A stretch of 64,000 bases of DNA from Verrucomicrobiota bacterium (lineage in GTDB: Bacteria > Verrucomicrobiota > Verrucomicrobiia > JAWXBN01 > JAWXCD01). The notes under the pieces are model-generated. The model was not told where the DNA came from. It saw nothing but the letters and a program-made list of their open reading frames with translations, and did no database searches. The DNA lies in NCBI GenBank assembly GCA_034440535.1, contig JAWXCD010000003.1, forward strand, positions 2,717 through 66,716. The letters are read 5' to 3'. Positions 47,675 to 59,130 of the stretch are shown one piece after another (positions within the stretch are counted from its first letter, which is position 1; every line of letters begins with the position of its first letter). Position numbers and translations under genes: made by a program.

Positions 47675-48459
47675 TTAATGAGCTGCACTTGCAGCCGTTG
47701 GGGGAGGCACGGGTGCGACAAACTTAGGGGGGGTCGTTTTGGAATCGGCACCTGAACTTGCAGATACTGCTGGAGCAGCTTTCACTTTTGCCAATTCAGG
47801 TCCAGTAAAAACTGGATGCCCGGCATACGCCGTCCTGATGGAGGCAACTTGTTCAGTAGTAATGGGGTCTGCCTTATTTCCCCATTCACTCCGAATGTAC
47901 GTCAAAATAGAGGCAATCTGATCGTCCTTTAATGATCCACTCCAAGCAACCATGGCTCCGTTATAAGGCTCGCCCTTGACAGTGATTGGGCCTTCTAATC
48001 CATAAAGCACTAACGCAGCAAGTTGATTGGGATCGCCGAGAACGTATTCGGAACCCGCCAATGGAGGATATTGGGAAGGCACCCCTGCTCCAGAAGCTTG
48101 ATGGCAACTCACGCAATTAGCGGTAAAAAGCTTTTTGCCCTTTTTTGCAATTTCTTTTGGATCATTTGGATCCACCTTGGCATGCGCCGACCCGAGATCA
48201 TCCCTGCTAAACAAACGTTCGTCGAAGCGATTTCCTTTAAAACCCGCTGAGTACCATACCAAATAAAAGCCTCCCCAAAAAATGACGATGGCAAACAAAC
48301 CTACCAGCCAAAGAGGAACGGGCTCAGCGCCATCAGTTGGCTCCTGCTTTTCGCGCATGATAGATCCATGCACCTGACCCACATCAAATCGTTCATGTGA
48401 TTCAATATCTGAATAATCGACCGGTTTTTTATCATCCGGGCTAGGAAGTTGAGGATCAA
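47675..48459 (-). CDS. membrane-anchored mono-heme cytochrome c (cbb3 oxidase subunit III / CcoP-like) with Pro/Ala-rich C-terminal tail
   Basis: Single CXXCH (CVSCHQ). An N-terminal TM helix (LWLVGLFAIVIFWGGFYLVW) follows a DYSDIESHE segment resembling the CcoP N-terminal region. The GTG start at 48459 overlaps the ccoO stop (GTGA); the track start at 48571 would overlap ccoO by 116 nt. Confidence 0.6.
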
Positions 48460-49067
48460 TGCTCACTGGTCGGGGCCTCCGGCAAAGAATAATTCTGGTT
48501 AAGTGATAACAGGTAAGCCACGAGATCTTCAGCTTCTTTCGTTGGGACGATTTCGTAACCTGTTTTGACATCTTTAACTTTCAAAGCGTTAATAGATGAA
48601 GACCCGACAATCTTTCGTTCTTCGTACAGAAACCGAAATGAGGGCATGATGGAACTTTTGTTTCTCAACCTTGCATTATAAATCTGCACATGCAGCTCAC
48701 CAGTAATGGATTGATATTTTGTTCCAACATTACGCAGGTCAGGTCCGGTGCGCATGGTGCCCAAAAACACGGTGGTATCATCTTTATAATCTCTTGCCAC
48801 ACTGGCTCGCGCACCCCAACCACGGGCAATATCAGAGCCACCATGTTCAGGTCGCACTTGTTGCGTATGACAATAGACGCATCCTTGCGCCGCATACACA
48901 CGCGCTCCAGAACTCACTCCGGGCTTACCCACGGCAACCAAGGTCCCCGACTCATCTTCAATGGGTCCTAACTTTCCCAATTGAACATACGGAATCATGA
49001 CCAATCCTACCCACGAAAAGAGGAAAGTAGCTGTGATCCCTATTAAAAGGGTGGGAAGTTTATTCAT
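48456..49067 (-). CDS. ccoO: cbb3-type cytochrome c oxidase subunit II (mono-heme)
   Basis: N-terminal TM helix, CVYCHTQ heme motif and a RTGPDL motif. ATGA overlap with ccoN. Confidence 0.85.
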   Translation of the reverse strand: MNKLPTLLIGITATFLFSWVGLVMIPYVQLGKLGPIEDESGTLVAVGKPGVSSGARVYAAQGCVYCHTQQVRPEHGGSDIARGWGARASVARDYKDDTTVFLGTMRTGPDLRNVGTKYQSITGELHVQIYNARLRNKSSIMPSFRFLYEERKIVGSSSINALKVKDVKTGYEIVPTKEAEDLVAYLLSLNQNYSLPEAPTSEH

Positions 49068-50533
49068 AGAACGTTACCTCCACGTGTGGGTTCCTCAAAT
49101 AATGTGGGAGTCGTTTTATTTTTACCAAGTCGCATGAGAATCATAACAAACGATGCCGCAAACACAAAGTGTCCAACCATCATTAACGCTCCGGAAAGTG
49201 ATCGCATCCATAACCAAGGTTTGGTGCTGTTCATAATCACATTAAAATCAGTCGTCCTCAAATTCATATGAATACCCTGCTGAATGCCCGCGATGGTCAA
49301 CGCTCCGAACATCAACAGTATTCCAATGGCTGTTGTCCAGAAATGTATCTTGATCAGTTTCGCACAAGGCCACTCCCAATTTACCAAACGTGGAACGATA
49401 TAATACATGGCTCCAAACATCACCATGGTAAAAAAGGCGTACAATCCCAGATGCGCATGGGCGACTGTTAGATGAGTAAAATGCGAGGCTTTGTTTATGG
49501 TGCGAAACGCCATCGAGATCCCTTGCAAACTCACCAGGGTATAACACATGGCTCCGAACACGATAAACCGGAGTGTCGGACTATAACGAAGCGCGCCAAA
49601 ACTTCCTTTCATCGTCAAATGATGATTTATCGCAACAGTTGTCACGGGAATAATCATCATCACGCTGGCGACGATACTCGCAGTCTGTAACCAAGCTGGC
49701 AGTGGTCCATAGATAAGATGATGAATTCCGTTCCATGAGTAAAAGAAAGCCAGCGTCCAAAATCCAATGATAGACAGGTAATAGCTATGAATAGGTTTTC
49801 CTAAAACTTTTGGAATCATGTAATAAACTGTTCCAACGCCAATAGTCGTGAACCACAAACCAATAATATTATGTGCGAACCACCAATTAACGGCGGCTTG
49901 AACAACACCTTGAACAGGATGCGCGACTAATAAAATCTGCGCTGTCCCATAAACCCATGGGAACCACAATACAGCAGCAAGGAGATACCATTGAGTGACG
50001 TAAACGTGGCCCGGCCTACGATTGATAAACATCAGAAGTGTCCACAACCCGATAAATGAGTATGCGATAAAAAGTAAAGGAGTCGAATACCCTGGCAGTT
50101 CCAACCACTCAATCGAAGTTCCATGCCCCGCAAAAATACCAAGGATCCCCAAGGTCAAACCTAGGTTCCAAATACACCCGGCAATAATGAGAAGTGACCC
50201 GTTTTTTAAACGCGTGTGGCATAGTCGGGCCATCAACCAAATGATGGTTCCTATACCGGCCATTGAAGCCCACCCATAAATGACGGATGTCAAATGAGCT
50301 GGGCGGACTCGCCCGAAAGTGGTGAAAGACCACGCATCCAAAAACCCTGGAGCATTAAATTTAAGTGCGGTGACCAACCCCAAAATCGTTCCAACCAATA
50401 GCCAAAGTATGGCCGAAGCATAAAAGAAAAGAACAGGACCTCGGGTTGACGCGTCAATGGCAACGCGTTCAATCCGGTCCAATTCGGCCCGGCTATCCGT
50501 GGATTGTTCTGGCATGGCTACCGTATTCATCAT
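49064..50533 (-). CDS. ccoN: cbb3-type cytochrome c oxidase subunit I (heme-copper oxidase catalytic subunit)
   Basis: A 489-aa polytopic membrane protein. His ligand contexts include HLTVAHAHLG, WFAHNIIGLWF and HHLIYGP, typical of CcoN. Confidence 0.85.
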   Translation of the reverse strand: MMNTVAMPEQSTDSRAELDRIERVAIDASTRGPVLFFYASAILWLLVGTILGLVTALKFNAPGFLDAWSFTTFGRVRPAHLTSVIYGWASMAGIGTIIWLMARLCHTRLKNGSLLIIAGCIWNLGLTLGILGIFAGHGTSIEWLELPGYSTPLLFIAYSFIGLWTLLMFINRRPGHVYVTQWYLLAAVLWFPWVYGTAQILLVAHPVQGVVQAAVNWWFAHNIIGLWFTTIGVGTVYYMIPKVLGKPIHSYYLSIIGFWTLAFFYSWNGIHHLIYGPLPAWLQTASIVASVMMIIPVTTVAINHHLTMKGSFGALRYSPTLRFIVFGAMCYTLVSLQGISMAFRTINKASHFTHLTVAHAHLGLYAFFTMVMFGAMYYIVPRLVNWEWPCAKLIKIHFWTTAIGILLMFGALTIAGIQQGIHMNLRTTDFNVIMNSTKPWLWMRSLSGALMMVGHFVFAASFVMILMRLGKNKTTPTLFEEPTRGGNVL

Positions 50534-50746
50534 CTACCCTTTAATTATTCCGACGTTCTTACGTTTAGGTTCACCCGGGAAACAATCACTCATTTGGCCC
50601 AGAGGTTCGTCATCATTAAAAATTGATTTGGCCCCGTTTTCGAGACTGGTCATTTGTCCATTTTTAACAGCCCAATACAATGCCCATACCCCACTCCCCC
50701 CGAGGAGAATCGTGAATACTAAAATAATGATTAGATAAAGGGTCAT
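50534..50746 (-). CDS. ccoS: cbb3 oxidase maturation protein CcoS/FixS-like (70 aa)
   Basis: A single TM helix followed by WALYWAVKNGQ...LE.GA..IFNDDEP matches the FixS/CcoS consensus (fWA.ksGQ.ddle.pa..il.DD). It abuts the ccoN start. Confidence 0.6.
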   Translation of the reverse strand: MTLYLIIILVFTILLGGSGVWALYWAVKNGQMTSLENGAKSIFNDDEPLGQMSDCFPGEPKRKNVGIIKG

Positions 50747-50751
50747 GGAAT

Positions 50752-51261
50752 TTATGGAATCGTTGTTTTGGTGGCTGGTGTTACTTGCGCAGGGAGTCCA
50801 AGAGCAGGCACCTTCGAAGCTACACTTGGAAGGGCTACAGGAACAGGAAGTGGGTTTCCCGCACGCACAGGTTTTTTACCAAGTTCAACAATGGTCTTTT
50901 CCATCGCTTTTTCGATAGGAATACGAGTGATTCCTGCTTGCTCATTAATCCATCCGTATTGTTCCAAAATCCCAGCATCTGTTTCGTTGCGTTTCTTTAA
51001 CTTTTCGATGCGCCCGTCATTGCGGTGACTATCGTAACTCTGTTCCGTGAGGAACTTGCTAAATGATTTGAATACCCCTGGCTTTTTAGCATGACCCTCT
51101 TCACCCTCAACATGCTCGGCAGTGTCATGCGCAGGTTTCTCATGCACGTGAAAGTTCACAAGCATTATGGATAAAAGTGGCAGCACCCCGAAAAAAGCGA
51201 GAATCGCAATATAAACCGGCAGGTTCGTCAAAAAATGATTGTCGTGATTGTCTTCAGCCAT
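50752..51261 (-). CDS. hypothetical single-pass membrane protein with His/Glu-rich segment, encoded between actF and ccoS
   Basis: TM helix VYIAILAFFGVLPLLSIMLV. Then HVHEKPAHDTAEHVEGEEGHAKK (a metal-binding-like His/Glu cluster). Then a Pro/Val/Ala-rich tail. The ATG lies 1 nt after the actF stop. Confidence 0.5.
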   Translation of the reverse strand: MAEDNHDNHFLTNLPVYIAILAFFGVLPLLSIMLVNFHVHEKPAHDTAEHVEGEEGHAKKPGVFKSFSKFLTEQSYDSHRNDGRIEKLKKRNETDAGILEQYGWINEQAGITRIPIEKAMEKTIVELGKKPVRAGNPLPVPVALPSVASKVPALGLPAQVTPATKTTIP

Positions 51262-51262
51262 A

Positions 51263-52537
51263 CTAGTTCTTCAGGTTGATGGACTCCAATAAACGTGGAT
51301 CTTTGATCGGGATAAGCGAATGGTTACCAAGGCTCCGCAAAAAGAAAAACGCCAAAATACCAAACACCGAAACCAGACATAAGACGTCCAAAAGCGAAAG
51401 GCATAGGAACGAAGCGATTGAGTTGTAATATGGTTTTGGGAAGATCAACCAATACAAATCTATGGCGTGCATCACCAAAACCCACACTGCCACTGAGACT
51501 AGCATAGCGGGTTTACGCTTAATCCACTGAGTTAAAAGCAAAATAAACGGGACGAAGAAATGGCCCAACACAATAAAGATAATGGTAAAATAACGCCAGA
51601 ACCCACCGTCTCTGTTACTGAGAAATCCTTCATTACGAAACCTGTAAAAAGTCGTTTCCTCTGGGATGTTAGCATACCAGATCAAGAAATACTGACTAAA
51701 CACGATGTATCCCCAGAAAACCGTAAAGGCAAAAAGTAATTTGCCCATGATATGATAATGCTCTGAATTCGTTATTGAAGTCATATGACCCTTTGAACGA
51801 AGCCAAGTGAGCAGAATGATCAACACGGCCATTGAACTCCCTGCTGACCCCGCAAAAATATAAACCCCGAACATTGTCGAATACCACTTGAAATCAAGCC
51901 CCATCAAATAATCAATCGACCAGAATGTAATTCCCAATCCAAAGAACGGAAGAGCGGCACAAGCAATCCGACGAAGCTTTAAGGAAATATTAAGATCACC
52001 GGTCACATCCTGACGAGTCGATAATGCCTTCACTAAGTACGCAACAAGGCCAAAGACCACAAAATAAAAGAAGAGCCTAAAGTAAAAGAAGTCGGGGTAA
52101 TTATATGAGAGCAAATAATAATAACTTTTTTTAGCGGCGAAGAGAGAATAGTACTTGTTACTAGGATCGATGGTCATCCATTCATAAAGGTATTTACCCA
52201 AAACAAACATGGCCGGGATAAATAGAACCGCCAAAACCAGAAACAACGAAGCCACGTTTTCAGCCAAACGTCGGATCACGGTAGACCAAGCGGCGTTTGA
52301 CGCATGATGCAAGAGCACCCAAAAGAGGGATCCTGCGCATATCGTGATGGCGATCGAACAAGCCCAAAGCCAGGACCGACCCAATTGAGCCGCTGTACCA
52401 GGCCCGAACTTCACGAATAAAAGGGCTACTATCGCAGCGATAATACCCGCAATCAAAAATCCAATCACCCCGCTACAGTGGCGAGTGACATCAAACCGCT
52501 CTTCAACAAGTTTGGTTTCGTGCAAAGGGTTACTCAT
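51263..52537 (-). CDS. actF: Alternative Complex III subunit F (NrfD-like polytopic membrane protein)
   Basis: A 424-aa multi-TM protein in the canonical position after actE. It overlaps actE by 8 nt. Confidence 0.7.
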   Translation of the reverse strand: MSNPLHETKLVEERFDVTRHCSGVIGFLIAGIIAAIVALLFVKFGPGTAAQLGRSWLWACSIAITICAGSLFWVLLHHASNAAWSTVIRRLAENVASLFLVLAVLFIPAMFVLGKYLYEWMTIDPSNKYYSLFAAKKSYYYLLSYNYPDFFYFRLFFYFVVFGLVAYLVKALSTRQDVTGDLNISLKLRRIACAALPFFGLGITFWSIDYLMGLDFKWYSTMFGVYIFAGSAGSSMAVLIILLTWLRSKGHMTSITNSEHYHIMGKLLFAFTVFWGYIVFSQYFLIWYANIPEETTFYRFRNEGFLSNRDGGFWRYFTIIFIVLGHFFVPFILLLTQWIKRKPAMLVSVAVWVLVMHAIDLYWLIFPKPYYNSIASFLCLSLLDVLCLVSVFGILAFFFLRSLGNHSLIPIKDPRLLESINLKN

Positions 52538-53141
52538 ATGGATTCACATCTCCTTCGTCCTCAGGAATATCTGCGGCGGTCCCGTGCTGACTACGCTGCA
52601 ACGCACGAAGGTAAGCGACAATAAGCCAACGATCCTGAACTGAAATATTTCCTCCGTAAGCGCCCATTTGCCCCTTACCATGGGTAATAATGTCAAAGAG
52701 TTCGCCATCGGACATTTTCAGTATTCGATCACTTTGCAAATTGGCCACACCTGCGAAACCGTACTCAGTTACCACACCATTACCCGCACCCGTGGCTCCG
52801 TGGCAGACGGCACAATAAATTCCAAATCGTTCCTGTCCCCTCTTCATCGCCGCTAGATCAATCTTAACGGGAATGCCATCGCCATACGTTGTTTTCATTT
52901 TACCGGTACTTAAATATTCGTCCTCTGAATAACCACCTCGTGGGACTGTCCCAGCGACAGGATGGCGTGTTCCTGAACCATCGGAAAAAAAGGTGCTGCC
53001 CTGTTGTGCCTTAACTTTATATTGCCGGTCCATGTCATTAAAAACTTCAACGGGCGGTTTTGTACTCCTCTGCCCACGGAAACCCACCACGCATACAGTG
53101 GCGATGACCAAGAAAATGAATGTGTATATAAAAATCTTCAT
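52530..53141 (-). CDS. actE: Alternative Complex III subunit E (mono-heme cytochrome c)
   Basis: N-terminal TM/signal and a single CAVCHG heme motif, ~200 aa. ATGA overlap with actD. Confidence 0.75.
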   Translation of the reverse strand: MKIFIYTFIFLVIATVCVVGFRGQRSTKPPVEVFNDMDRQYKVKAQQGSTFFSDGSGTRHPVAGTVPRGGYSEDEYLSTGKMKTTYGDGIPVKIDLAAMKRGQERFGIYCAVCHGATGAGNGVVTEYGFAGVANLQSDRILKMSDGELFDIITHGKGQMGAYGGNISVQDRWLIVAYLRALQRSQHGTAADIPEDEGDVNPYE

Positions 53142-53701
53142 GCTTCGTCGTCGTGATTAATAACAGTGATATCGCTTGCACAAAGAGTCTGCAACAGGTC
53201 GCGCGTTGCAGATTCCGAAAAATTTGTGTCCTCTGCTTCTATGACAACAAAAAAACCATCGTCAGTGCTTTTTTGCAATAAATCCCAATTAAAAGAGGGA
53301 TGATTCAATCGTGGCAACCGGTTAATTCCCAACATTCCAAATACAGTCGCAAAGGCGCAAAATAGGATCGTTAATTCGAACATAATTGGGAAAAACGCTG
53401 GTAAACTGAGGAATGGTTTCCCAGCTACAACCATTGGATATAAGAAAACTGAGGGAATCACTTGCAATAGAAACGCCGTGAGCAATCCCGTAATCCCACC
53501 GATGAGCGAAAGTACTGACACTTTTGAATTTCCAAGACCCATGGCGGCATCCATTCCATGAACGGGGAAGGGAGAAAACACATCCCATTTTTTATACCCG
53601 GCATCCCGAATTTTCTCGGCAGCATGAAGCAAGGCGGCGGTATTTGGAAATTGCGCCCCGATTCCGTAGACCTTGTTACCGGTAATAGCAGCTGTGGTCA
53701 T
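53138..53701 (-). CDS. actD: Alternative Complex III subunit D (DUF3341-type membrane subunit)
   Basis: ~187 aa with two C-terminal TM helices. I took ATG 53701, directly after the actC stop, over the extended track start 53785. Confidence 0.65.
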   Translation of the reverse strand: MTTAAITGNKVYGIGAQFPNTAALLHAAEKIRDAGYKKWDVFSPFPVHGMDAAMGLGNSKVSVLSLIGGITGLLTAFLLQVIPSVFLYPMVVAGKPFLSLPAFFPIMFELTILFCAFATVFGMLGINRLPRLNHPSFNWDLLQKSTDDGFFVVIEAEDTNFSESATRDLLQTLCASDITVINHDDEA

Positions 53702-53702
53702 C

Positions 53703-55142
53703 TTAATGCGCCTCCTTACCGTGGTCCTGATGACCCGTTTCAGAATGGTGCAGCGGACTGTGCGGATCTGATTCCGGCAAGACACCTTTGACCTCAGAAA
53801 TAGCGATCATCGGTAAAAACCGTACGAACAAAAGGAAAAGGCTTAGGAAAATACCAAAAGTTGAAAGGAACGTCCAAATATCGACCCATGTAGGCGAAAA
53901 GTAGCCCCATGATGACGGCAGAAAGTCGCGATGAAGCGATGTGACAATAATAACAAAGCGTTCGAACCACATACCTGCATTTACGAACATACACACCGCA
54001 AAAACAACGTATACATTGTGGCGACAGGCCTTAAACCAGAACAACTGAGGAGAAAGTACGTTACAGCTCATCATGGCGAGGTATGCCCACCAATAGACGC
54101 CTGTGGCTCGATTAAAAAACGCGTACTGCTCAAAAAAGTTGCCGCTGTACCATGCGATGAAAAATTCCATGGTGTACGCATAACCAACAATAGTGCCGGT
54201 TAATAAAATGATCTTGGCCATGTTGTCTATATGCTTAGGCGTTATCACATCATGCAAACCATAAAGCGCACGCGCAGGGAGCATCAGCGTGAGCACCATC
54301 GCAAAACCACCAAAGATTGCGCCGGCGACAAAATAAGGAGGGAAGATCGTGGTGTGCCATCCAGGAATAACCGAAGTGGCGAAATCCATAGAAACGACTG
54401 TGTGCACCGAGAGCACTAGGGGAGTCGAAATACCGGCCAATACAAGGTACGCTTTCTCGTAGTTATGCCAATGACGGTTCGCCCCACGCCAGCCCATCGC
54501 TGCGATTCCATAAGCCATTTTGCGAAATTTGTTCGTTGCGCGATCACGTAATGTCGCAAGATCAGGGATGAGGCCTACGTACCAGAAAAGAACAGACACG
54601 GTAAAGTAAGTTGAGACGGCAAAGACGTCCCAAAGAAGCGGGCTTCGGAAGTTTGGCCAAATAGCATTGGAATTTGGAATAGGTGCCAGATACCAAGCCA
54701 TCCACACACGCCCGACGTGAACCGCAGGAAAAATTCCGGCGCACATCACGGCAAATAAGGTCATGGCTTCAGCGGCTCGATTAATGGATGTCCGCCATTT
54801 TTGGCGCGTCAAAAACAAAATAGCAGATATCAACGTTCCAGCATGTCCAATTCCAATCCAGAAAACGAAATTCGTAATGTCCCATGCCCAACCAACAGGA
54901 TGATTCAATCCCCATACTCCCACGCCAGTGCTGATCAGGTATCCGATGGTAAACATCGAGACTGATGCCAAAAGTGCGGAAGGAATAAAAGCGATCCACC
55001 ACCACAATGGAGTGCCTCCTTCAACTATTCCGCAAATTTTTTCCGTGACCCAATTGTACTTGCGATTGTTCAGTACCAATGGAACACGTATGACCGAGTC
55101 CTCTATCTCCGGATCACCTTTAGTGAGGGTTTCCTGTGACAT
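53703..55142 (-). CDS. actC: Alternative Complex III subunit C (NrfD/PsrC-like quinol-interacting membrane subunit)
   Basis: 479 aa with ~10 TM helices. The N-terminus [23 protein letters not shown] is typical of ActC. Confidence 0.8.
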
Positions 55143-55144
55143 AC

Positions 55145-58100
55145 CTAGTGATTCCCTCCACCTTGAACGGGAGTTCGATGACCGGCAGGTTGCACGGCTG
55201 GAGTGGTCGGATGTGCGTGTTCACCTTCTGGTGCATGCCCGTGAGCTGCACTGTGGTCACCACCATGATGCCCAACGCCACCGCTCATTTTGCCTACATC
55301 GTCAATATCAGGCATAATAAAGCCTGCCCCTTCTTTCATAAGATTCGGGTTACGTAACCGAGCTAAATAGGAGGTTCGTGGTTTTGTGTTCAGATAGGAC
55401 AGGACCGAGTAATCACGCCCACTCGCTTTCCACTCCGAAACACGGCTGTTCGGATCTGATATATCCCCAAATACAATCGCGTCCGCAGGGCAAGCCTGTT
55501 GACATGCGGTGGTGATTGTTTGATCGGGAACTTTTATGTTATCCGATGCTGCAGCCTTCACCTTTTGATCAATCTTTGCTGTTTCGATTCGTTGAACACA
55601 ATAGGTACATTTTTCCATGACCCCGCGCATACGAACTGTCACGTTTGGATTGCTGCGCAACTTCATCATTTCAATGTCTTCACGAGGTCTATCCGCCAAT
55701 GGTCCAAGATAAAGGGAATCAAGCGGGCGCTTATTGTAATCAAAGAAATTAAAGCGGCGCACTTTGTATGGGCAGTTGTTAGCGCAGTATCGAGTTCCGA
55801 TACAGCGGTTATAAGCCATCACATTCAAACCTTCTTCACTATGCACGGTCGCGTTTACAGGGCATACTGTTTCGCAAGGAGCATTTTCACAATGCACGCA
55901 AGCCATAGGCTGGAAAATCATCTCGGTGTCGTCCAACTCAATGACTTCATCCAAGTTTGATCCTAGAGGAATTTTCGAAGCATCGCGTTTACTGCTAAAA
56001 TAACGGTCAATACGCAGCCAATGCATTTCGCGTCCGTTCTGAACCTGTTCTTTCCCAACGATCGGAATGTTGTTCTCACTCTGGCAGGCAATGGTGCAGG
56101 TGTTGCATCCGATGCACGTATTAAGGTCAATCGCCATTCCCCATTGATGCACCGGTGGGCGTATCGAAGAGTGTTGGCCGTTTTCAAAATAAGGATTCTT
56201 ATGGATCGATATGTTTTCAGGAATATGCGCATCCATTCCCTGATGCTTTGCGAAGTCAGGCACAGCCACAAAATCTTCAACGGTCCCTTCGCGTACAAGA
56301 GCGCGCCCTTCCATTGACCCGTGTTCCTGCGTGATCGCGAGATCGAAGCGCTTGCCGGTTTTTTCTACTGTGACACCGGTTGTAATATAAGGATTTGTTG
56401 AACTCCGTAAGGCGTAGGCATTGGCGCCAAGATTGGAAGCAATCCGTAACCCATGCGCATCCGAAGCAACTCGTCCGTACCCAACTGAAAGTGATATAGA
56501 ATTGTCCGCGTGTCCTGGCACAATTAAGATCGGAGCTTCCAATGATTTGCCATTGGCTTTTATCCGAATAACGTCGGATTGATAAATCCCTTTCTCTAAC
56601 ACACTCTTAAGGTTCAAGTCGTTCGCGGTTTTCTGACTGATCAATGCCGCGTTCCCCCAAGTATTTTTGGTGATGGGATCTGGCAATTCCTGCATCCAAC
56701 CATTGTTGGAATACCGTCCATCATCGACTTTATAATCAGCCATGATGACCAATTCGAGACTCTGCGGACTCAGTGGAACGGTATCAATTTGAACGGGTAC
56801 AGGCGTTACCGTGGCGACATTACCTGCGGCAACAGGAGCGGCAATGCGCGCCCCAGAATAAAACCCGTCATGGACAAACTTTTTCCAAGCAGAAGTAATA
56901 TCTCCACCAGCAACCTGCTTAAATGTTTCTGAAACCAATTCAGGCCCATCGGTTATCGCAAACCCAGCGAGCGCGCCTAATAGTTGAGTGGTCGATATGC
57001 CACCAAACAAGGGGAGGATCATCGGCTGAATCGAAAGGAGCGTTCCATCTTCACTTAAGGTGTCACCCCAAGTCTCAAGGAAATGAGACATGGGTAACTG
57101 AATATTCGCTAAACCTTTTTCAGATGATTCATCGTTATGGAATCCAAGGCGATATACTTTCCCGATTGAAGCCACCTTCTTCTGAAGGTTCGTCCAATCC
57201 AAATCATTAGGAGCGTTATAAACGGGGTTACCGCCAGCAATAATGAGTGTGCTGATCTTACCCGATCGAATCAATTCCGCCGCCTGAACGATGTTAAGTC
57301 CCGTAAATGCAGAGGCGACCGCAGCCTGTGGTGCCGCCGTTACCGAGGCATTTATCGCCGCAACAATCTGATGCACCAGCGCAGGTTGATGAGCTCCCGC
57401 CACAATCATTGCCTTACCGGAGTTCGCTTGAAGGTCCTTGGCTAATCCAGTCAACCACCGGTTTAAAAATGAATTGGCAGCTAGATCCAACAATGGAACA
57501 GGTTTCCCGTTGACCGCAGGGACAGCGACCCCAAGTTTCTGCGCAAGCGTGGCCGCAAAGTTAATGACCTGACTCGCTGCAAGCCGTAAGCGATGATCCG
57601 CCACAGCGCCAGTGTTCGTGTACCGATTTTCCACGACATACAATCGGTTCATCGGATCGCCCGGATTTTTTACGCGCCGTTTATCAGTGAAACTCTTGAT
57701 CGATTGCAGCCCGCCTTCGTCGAAATTTAGGAAGTCACAGTCCAAAGAAAGAATGACATCCGCTTTTTCAAAACGCGGTATGGCCTTCGGGGCGTTGTTG
57801 AGTTGTTCAGCCAGCATCATCGGCTCGTAAACCGCGATATTGATTTGAGGAAACTGCTTTTGAAGTTCACGCACTAACCGCGCTTGAGTAGGAGAATTCG
57901 CCTCATCCAAGAGAACTAGTACATCCTTTCCTTGAGATGCTACTAATTGATTCCGGAGACTTTCTAAAATAGTTTTAATCTCTGAATTTGATTTGGCAAC
58001 ACCCTCTACGATAAGAGTTTTGGAGCGGTCTGGGTCGTATAAATCGAGAATAGAGGCCTGAGCAAAAGTTGAACTGCCGCCATTGCTTTGAGGGTAAAGA

Positions 58101-58480
58101 TTATTACCTTCAATCTTAACCGGACGCCCATCAAAAGTGGTTACGATCAAAGGTTGAGCCCCGCGACGTCTAGGCATCGCAGACGCATACAACAACGCGC
58201 GTCCAGGAACCATCCACTCGGGAGTTTTGACCAATGGCACGACATACGCCTCGGGACGACGGCAACCCGCAAGCGATCCTATTCCTGCCAGAGCCATTGA
58301 TGCTCCCATCAATTTGAGGAAACTGCGACGAGATTGGCCATCGGTAAACTCGGAAGCGTTGTCGGGGAATTCACGATCTAGCCACTGCTTAAACTCAGCG
58401 GAGTCCGAATACTCCTCAAGACTACGCCAATACTTTTTCCCGGTAACAGGACCTTCTGGATGTTGGAAAACTCTTTTCAT
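55145..58480 (-). CDS. actB: Alternative Complex III subunit B (fused molybdopterin-oxidoreductase-like domain + 4Fe-4S ferredoxin domain), Tat-exported
   Basis: Tat motif [18 protein letters not shown] large MopB-like domain is followed by [25 protein letters not shown] and [12 protein letters not shown] clusters. The ATG at 58480 overlaps the actA stop (ATGA). Confidence 0.85.
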
Positions 58481-59130
58481 CGGTGACAACCTGCGCAATT
58501 TATAGGTGGATTGACTTTCCAATCATGAACTAAATTTTTACCGAGGCTTTCCTGCCTTTGTTCGCGCCCCGGCTTCCAATCCAGATTAAAAACATCCTCA
58601 TTTTTTCTTACCGCATGCTCGGGATTTTTATGACATTCCAGACAGAAATCCATACTAAAAGTTTTAACATGCTCCACAACGTCCATCTCATTGACCTGTC
58701 CATGGCAACTCACGCAACTCACACCGCGATTGACGTGAACGGAATGGTTAAAATAAACGTAATCAGGCAACTGATGCACCTTAACCCATTTAATAGGTAT
58801 CCCCTTTTCATGGCTCTCTCTAAGTACAGCCAACTTGGGGTTATCTTTCTGAACGTGACTGTGACAGTTCATACAAGTCTGTGTCGTCGGAATATTTGAA
58901 TGCCCTGATACCTCAACAAATGAGTGACAATACCGACAATCCATACCCAATTGTTTAACGTGAATGGCATGACTAAATGGGATGGGTTGCTCAGGTTGGT
59001 ACCCCACACGGGTAAATTTTGGGGTAAACCAGTACCAAATGCCCAAGACATTAAACGTTGCAATAAGAACGACCCCGATAAGGATCTGCACCGGTAATTT
59101 ATTAGTCCACTTTGGAAAAAAATTCGCCAT
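58477..59130 (-). CDS. actA: Alternative Complex III subunit A (penta-heme cytochrome c)
   Basis: Five CXXCH motifs (CRYCH, CMNCH, CVSCH, CLECH, CAGCH) and an N-terminal TM anchor, 217 aa. Confidence 0.85.
   Translation of the reverse strand: MANFFPKWTNKLPVQILIGVVLIATFNVLGIWYWFTPKFTRVGYQPEQPIPFSHAIHVKQLGMDCRYCHSFVEVSGHSNIPTTQTCMNCHSHVQKDNPKLAVLRESHEKGIPIKWVKVHQLPDYVYFNHSVHVNRGVSCVSCHGQVNEMDVVEHVKTFSMDFCLECHKNPEHAVRKNEDVFNLDWKPGREQRQESLGKNLVHDWKVNPPINCAGCHR

Follow-up and report, generated by a model that had tools for sequence, protein, structure and literature searches.

The act-cco operon and its junction

On the minus strand of the window (the whole 64-kb stretch of DNA that was analysed), the genes actA, actB, actC, actD, actE and actF are followed by a small gene for 169 aa, here called ORF169, and then by ccoS, ccoN, ccoO and a ccoP-like cytochrome c gene, all in a single operon (Table 1). 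The initial annotation had described ORF169 as a single-TM protein wedged between actF and ccoS, and the ORF list and an inspection of the junctions confirmed both borders: the TAG of actF is separated by 1 base from the ATG of ORF169, whose TAA stop codon in turn lies 5 nt ahead of the ATG of ccoS. A promoter and terminator scan detected no promoter-like or terminator-like site inside or adjoining ORF169; the sole nearby match was a plus-strand, antisense promoter-like site within ccoS.

The CcoP-like protein of the window has one CxxCH motif and one cytochrome c domain with a weak FixP_N match, and gene callers place the start of its gene later, which gives a product of 263 aa. Canonical CcoP is a dihaem protein. 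No ccoQ, ccoG, ccoH or ccoI was seen near the cco genes of the window. Just downstream of them lies a giant ORF with repetitive Gly/Asn/Ser/Thr-rich units and a PEP-CTERM-like motif (TPEPEEWMVIILTLIVLAFYGRK) at its end.

Table 1. Position of the act and cco genes, the segments of ORF169 and neighbouring features in the window
Feature	Position	Strand	Remarks
actA	58477-59130	minus	
actB	55145-58522	minus	
His-rich C-terminus of ActB	55148-55312	minus	
actC	53703-55142	minus	
His-rich C-terminus of ActC	53706-53780	minus	
actD	53138-53785	minus	
actE	52530-53141	minus	
actF	51263-52537	minus	424 aa; directly upstream of ORF169, translationally coupled; 6f0k_F, E 7.5e-69 (phmmer vs PDB)
ORF169 (actG-like gene)	50752-51261	minus	169 aa and stop codon; seventh act gene
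ORF169 residues 1-13	51223-51261	minus	short acidic N-terminal segment (MAEDNHDNHFLTN); composition
ORF169 residues 14-37	51151-51222	minus	single TM helix; hydropathy, AlphaFold, aligns with the 8K9E_G TM helix
ORF169 residues 38-73	51043-51150	minus	lineage-specific insertion: His/Glu-rich linker and amphipathic helix PGVFKSFSKFL
ORF169 residues 74-131	50869-51042	minus	conserved ActG core; matched by all 153 homologues, aligned to 8K9E_G
ORF169 residues 132-169	50755-50868	minus	Pro/Ala/Val-rich disordered tail; composition, pLDDT about 50
ccoS	50534-50746	minus	70 aa; TIGR00847, E 1.7e-9; Pfam FixS, E 1.5e-7
ccoN	49064-50533	minus	
ccoO	48456-49067	minus	
ccoP-like cytochrome c gene	47675-48571	minus	
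Giant repetitive ORF	24262-47058	minus	7598 aa

The only hydrophobic segment of ORF169 (about residues 14-37) reaches Kyte-Doolittle values of up to 2.5 and corresponds to a helix in the AlphaFold model (residues 14-39; pLDDT 80-93). The acidic segment in front of it would be cytoplasmic, a topology assigned by homology only. The His/Glu cluster after the TM helix and the Pro/Ala/Val-rich tail that had been pointed out earlier were both found, with HVHEKPAHDTAEHVEGEEGHAKK at residues 38-60 and the tail at the C-terminal end, while the core between insertion and tail comprises, in this order, a long helix, the YGWINEQAGITRIPIEKAME motif and a short helix. The protein contains no Cys.

Conservation and family of ORF169

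A word-indexed search with ORF169 returned a single match, an identical "hypothetical protein" from an NCBI MAG labelled Verrucomicrobiota, and identical copies are present on 7 contigs. An exhaustive phmmer search of 1.84 billion cluster representatives (50% clustering) yielded 153 homologues with E <= 1e-3, most of them 110-230 aa long. Since nearly all of these align their own residues ~40-135 to residues ~74-165 of ORF169, the conserved part of the protein is the region after the His/Glu stretch. One protein of 2274 aa with 12 matched stretches to residues 46-86 (P0125) was left out of the alignments; its match is taken to be a repetitive or compositionally biased region. A profile search added 90 further members, all annotated as "hypothetical" and without a Pfam domain, and the named ones among them are assigned to Chthoniobacterales, Terrimicrobiaceae or Verrucomicrobiae.

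The verrucomicrobial members (profile A1) share a common plan, i.e., a short N-terminus, one TM helix, a linker of ~30 residues leading into a helix with the consensus YD..RA..R.EKL, the core motif L..YGWVDK.KG.VRIPI.RAMEL and a Pro/Ala-rich tail of variable length. Near-invariant columns correspond to R84, L99, Y102, W104, G110, I114, P115, I116 and A119 of ORF169. The tails of the GTDB homologues are 93 aa long in the median and consist to 71% of Pro/Ala/Ser/Thr.

A synteny scan for the motif Y[AGH]W[VI]D[KR]x[KA]G[TVI] in one genome per GTDB species, with confirmation by tblastn, showed that at least 454 species genomes encode a homologue, and the possibility of a spurious ORF was rejected because of this conservation. 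The best 80 of these loci are labelled Verrucomicrobiota, Chthoniobacterales, Udaeobacter or Spartobacteria, with the exception of one Dormiibacterota bin. With its identical copies, its 153 homologues and a constant slot in the operon, ORF169 is a real gene. In Pfam and NCBIfam scans, no model matched ORF169 and no consistent family emerged among the other members; scattered weak hits (SieB, DUF4381, FixQ, DUF2095) were dismissed as noise from the TM helix or from coiled regions.

Homology to ActG

When all PDB chains were searched with hmmsearch, chain G of 8K9E, the "ActG" of the ACIII from Chloroflexus aurantiacus, was the top match of all three family profiles. This and the related C. aurantiacus structures presumably represent the photosynthetic complex. 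The E value was 0.0017 for the Verrucomicrobiota-only profile A1 and 2.5e-5 for profile A2, whose match takes in both the TM helix and the motif and covers residues 31-105 of the 112-residue chain. For profile A3, it was 3.4e-5, and the chain, again matched across TM helix and motif, was the sole one with E < 1. A comparison of the 8k9e_G residues with the family by hhalign, for which the ActG query consisted of the residues printed in the hmmsearch alignments, resulted in probabilities of 96.9% (A1) and 96.7% (A3). Homology is also detectable between the two single sequences by BLASTP (E 2e-5; 33% identity over 58 aa), with the aligned segments ...LEQYGWINEQAGITRIPIEKAMEKTIVELG and ...LNSYGYT--MEGKVHIPIDRAMD-LIVERG. 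This match covers the motif L..YGW(V/I)D..G..RIPI.(R/K)AME, and the similarity to C. aurantiacus ActG is concentrated in this motif of ~35 residues plus the TM helix. A single-sequence phmmer search of the PDB with ORF169 returned nothing even at E 10.

The verdict of the initial annotation that ORF169 is not a recognisable ActG must hence be revised. It was missed there and by the annotation pipelines because neither Pfam nor NCBIfam has a matching model. Points against the assignment to ActG are the small extent of the match and a Foldseek search in which neither AlphaFold model, both of only moderate confidence (pLDDT 69 and 72), retrieved a PDB structure; for an extended subunit modelled outside its complex, this null result is uninformative. 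Both models consist of the TM helix, a disordered linker, a helix of 17-26 residues, a small hairpin formed by the YGW/RIPI region and a short helix.

ActG has been described as the seventh subunit of ACIII, exclusive to this complex, with one predicted TMH and no redox cofactor, and actG is the sole act gene that some act clusters lack (PMC5928083). ORF169 is the last act gene after actF, has one TM helix without a cofactor motif and is homologous to 8K9E_G; a CxxCH motif occurs in none of the 78 GTDB homologues. We consider it very probable that ORF169 is ActG, a structural ACIII subunit devoid of cofactors, from a deeply branching verrucomicrobial lineage. In the two nearest syntenic relatives of ORF169 (L007:8519-8935 and L008:9221-9619), most of the YGW...RIP loop has been lost and the amphipathic-helix insertion has been kept, so the motif is not indispensable in this subclade.

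Association with act rather than cco genes

According to blastx comparisons with the proteins of the window, the best 80 of the at least 454 loci have the order actB-C-D-E-F, homologue and ccoN-O-P wherever the contig extends, and the distance from the end of the actF alignment to the start of the homologue is 2-11 nt in all but two of them. The suggested co-occurrence with act and cco clusters was thereby borne out, the gene being present after actF in all of the best 80 loci with adequate flanks. The two closest ActF relatives (L007 and L008; 48-50% identity) encode a protein of 132-138 aa between actF and fixS.

Distant members are found in other surroundings. A homologue of 205 aa (P0351) is encoded after actF in an operon with a split ActB and is followed by SCO1/SenC without any cbb3 genes. 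One of 133 aa (P0354) also follows actF and precedes SCO1, COX2, COX1, COX3 and COX4; the same five genes lie downstream of a third homologue of 163 aa (P0350, locus L089), which is encoded after an ActB-like gene. The fourth (P0353; 465 aa) follows actF and has no oxidase genes downstream. Three of these four distant homologues are thus directly preceded by actF. Because the slot after actF is constant and the downstream oxidase is of the aa3 type or absent in distant members, the gene belongs to act and not to cco. At L089:5413-13574 and L090:28-6588, SCO1/SenC and COX2-COX1-COX3-COX4 come after an ActG-like gene; no actC, actD or actF was called in the former cluster, a layout like that of the "Cr" operon of C. 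aurantiacus.

In many loci of Chthoniobacterales and Udaeobacter (L009-L088), the gap between the stop of the actG-like gene and the ccoN match measures only -7 to about 80 nt, which leaves no room for ccoS there. The ccoS gene appears to be confined to some lineages, in which the gap measures about 175-270 nt. That ACIII genes directly adjoin cbb3 genes in Verrucomicrobia has been described (PMC8498564); in papers on verrucomicrobial act-cbb3 clusters, e.g., the one just cited, we found no discussion of a small gene between actF and ccoS or ccoN.

Predicted topology and proposed role

Arg/Lys-rich N-terminal segments are found in C. aurantiacus ActG and in distant members of the family. The verrucomicrobial members have 1.6 Lys and Arg residues before the TM helix versus 3.9 in the 15 residues after it, so that the positive-inside rule is ambiguous here. 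In P0353, which stems from a 26.9-kb contig of JGI metagenome 3300047160, an ActG-like N-terminus with TM helix and a YGP...RIPVERAMDL motif is fused to two cytochrome c domains with CxxCH motifs, which follow a Pro/Ala linker and match CcoP (TIGR00782; E 2.7e-14); the same operon has a fused actC-actD. c-type cytochromes mature on the periplasmic side. The Arg/Lys-rich N-termini and the cytochrome fusion of P0353 together suggest a cytoplasmic N-terminus and a periplasmic core, and a periplasmic location is most likely for the conserved core of ActG.

ORF169 would be translated from the actABCDEF operon directly after actF, and its N-terminal helix may anchor the protein beside the membrane arm formed by ActC, ActD and ActF. 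The core, i.e., the helix, the YGW...RIPI.(R/K)AME motif and the short helix, would dock on the rest of the complex, probably on its periplasmic side, and the Pro/Ala-rich tail would be a disordered extension. The protein lacks a redox cofactor and presumably acts as a structural subunit that stabilises ACIII. In C. aurantiacus, the newly resolved ActG and ActI are reported by Xin et al. (2024) to contribute to complex stability.

The alternative that retains most weight, although it is unlikely, is a role of the ActG family in connecting ACIII with the terminal oxidase (cbb3 in the present case), as a tether or docking subunit of a supercomplex, instead of stabilising ACIII. The family is located at the act/oxidase junction whatever the type of oxidase, homologues have long flexible Pro/Ala tails, and in P0353 the ActG-like part is fused to a dihaem cytochrome c of the CcoP kind. 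Both in L089 and in the Cr operon of C. aurantiacus (Caur_2139-2144: actB, actE, actA, actG, SCO1, cox; PMC3150298), an actG-like gene has moreover remained beside SCO1 and cox genes, though actC, actD and actF are missing, and supercomplexes of ACIII and oxidase exist in other bacteria (PMC5928083). However, ActG is a resolved chain in the ACIII structures of C. aurantiacus, and if these represent the photosynthetic complex, its operon actABCDEFG (Caur_0621-0627) is listed without oxidase genes (PMC3150298); the operon of P0353 is likewise devoid of downstream oxidase genes, and the ACIII-aa3 supercomplex of F. johnsoniae is formed with ActA-F only (PMC8552683). The initial annotation had envisaged a novel subunit or tether of an ACIII-cbb3 supercomplex or a copper/heme-delivery factor: the tie to the ACIII genes holds, but the relatives that occur with aa3-type oxidases or with no oxidase at all speak against a cbb3-specific role. 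A stabilising subunit of ACIII is the preferred reading.

The His/Glu insertion and other His-rich segments

In 77 GTDB homologues, the TM helix and YGW are separated by 30-36 aa, of which no more than one is His, versus about 65 aa with 6 His in ORF169. The insertion of ~32 aa is common only to ORF169, P0122 and the L007/L008 proteins, which form a small subclade. Within it, the amphipathic helix has been kept (PGVFKSFSKFL, PGFFENIYTTL, SGLIKKLQSFF) and the acidic, His-bearing spacer in front of it varies: ORF169 and P0122 (36% overall identity) share several His residues (FH at the end of the TM helix and GHA before the amphipathic helix), and the spacers of L007 and L008 contain one His each. 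The AlphaFold pLDDT across the insertion is 52-61. Judged by these comparisons, the His/Glu insertion is lineage-specific and situated in a predicted flexible linker. The Pro/Ala tail is a common feature in Verrucomicrobiota. The cluster cannot define the function of the family because it is absent from nearly all members.

Among the other real genes of the 64-kb window, at least 5 His within 25 residues were detected only in a metallo-beta-lactamase-like ORF and in the tails of ActB and ActC. Among the verrucomicrobial loci L007-L088, the last 55 aa of ActB contain at least 3 His in 24 of 58, and the tail of ActC has at least 1 His in 39 of 73 and at least 3 in 32, with a typical PEADPHH..P..HH-like pattern. 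In R. marinus, the ActC termini face the cytoplasm (PMC5928083). The ACIII subunits of Verrucomicrobiota thus have His-rich low-complexity ends as a general trait, on both sides of the membrane, which argues against a periplasmic copper site dedicated to cbb3.

Two explanations build on this cluster. In the first, which we regard as quite improbable, the His/Glu insertion and the His-rich tail of ActB would provide a metal-binding or electrostatic surface that couples ACIII to cbb3, as a supercomplex interface or copper reservoir, and the ActG family would serve as an adaptor to the downstream oxidase. It is very improbable that ORF169 is a periplasmic delivery or buffering factor that supplies metal (copper) or haem to cbb3 by means of the cluster. 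Its residues 38-73 do comprise 5 His and 7 acidic residues, several of the His are common to P0122, and the gene adjoins the cbb3 maturation gene ccoS. Yet the cluster is an insertion that the 77 GTDB homologues with their short linkers do without and that retains one His in L007/L008, ORF169 has neither Cys nor a match to a Pfam or NCBIfam chaperone model, and the His-rich tails of ActB and ActC suggest that such clusters are a general compositional trait. Membership in a copper chaperone family (SCO1/SenC, PCuAC) was rejected for want of a domain match, of Cys and of conservation of the His cluster.

That ORF169 is a small subunit or assembly factor of cbb3 of the CcoQ/FixQ or CcoH/FixH type, which are likewise single-pass and encoded among cco genes, is extremely improbable: the position just upstream of ccoS and ccoN would suit such a protein, and weak FixQ hits were obtained for 2 of 64 family members (best E 0.026), but these are noise-level and driven by the TM helix, ORF169 itself has no significant FixQ or FixH match, as the initial annotation had correctly stated, and the family is not limited to cbb3 contexts, since members occur with an aa3-type oxidase or without an oxidase.

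Relevance for annotation

The ActG assignment introduces no new protein type or mechanism, and ORF169 is to be regarded as a divergent, unannotated member of the known ActG family. ActG is nevertheless the least understood ACIII subunit, and with no matching Pfam or NCBIfam model, hundreds of verrucomicrobial copies and those in other act contexts are labelled "hypothetical". The definition of ActG by the sequence YGW(V/I)D..G..RIPI.RAM, which current domain libraries lack, together with a position at the act/oxidase junction offers a simple annotation rule. It also provides a target for gene deletion and structural studies in the ACIII-cbb3 systems of soil Verrucomicrobiota.

Comparison with known systems

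The closest characterised counterpart is ActG of C. aurantiacus (chain G of 8K9E, 8K9F, 8X2J and 9ILT; Caur_0627), which is, like ORF169, encoded by the last act gene after actF and is also small, with a single TM helix near the N-terminus and without a cofactor motif. Both have the motif L(N/E)xYG(W/Y)...G..(R/H)IPI(D/E)(R/K)AM(D/E) about 35-65 residues after the helix. C. aurantiacus ActG comprises 112 aa and stops just behind the motif, whereas ORF169 adds the ~32-aa insertion and a tail of 38 aa; the loop after YGW is two residues longer in ORF169, and beyond the motif the two proteins have negligible identity.

ActG of R. marinus, which was identified by mass fingerprinting and was not seen in the 6F0K map (PMC5928083), has one TMH and no cofactor as well and is likened to ORF169 by description. 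Among the solved structures, the ActF of the window is closest to that of R. marinus. In their layout, the verrucomicrobial act-cbb3 clusters described for Methylacidiphilum and Opitutaceae (PMC8498564) are the same as that of the window.
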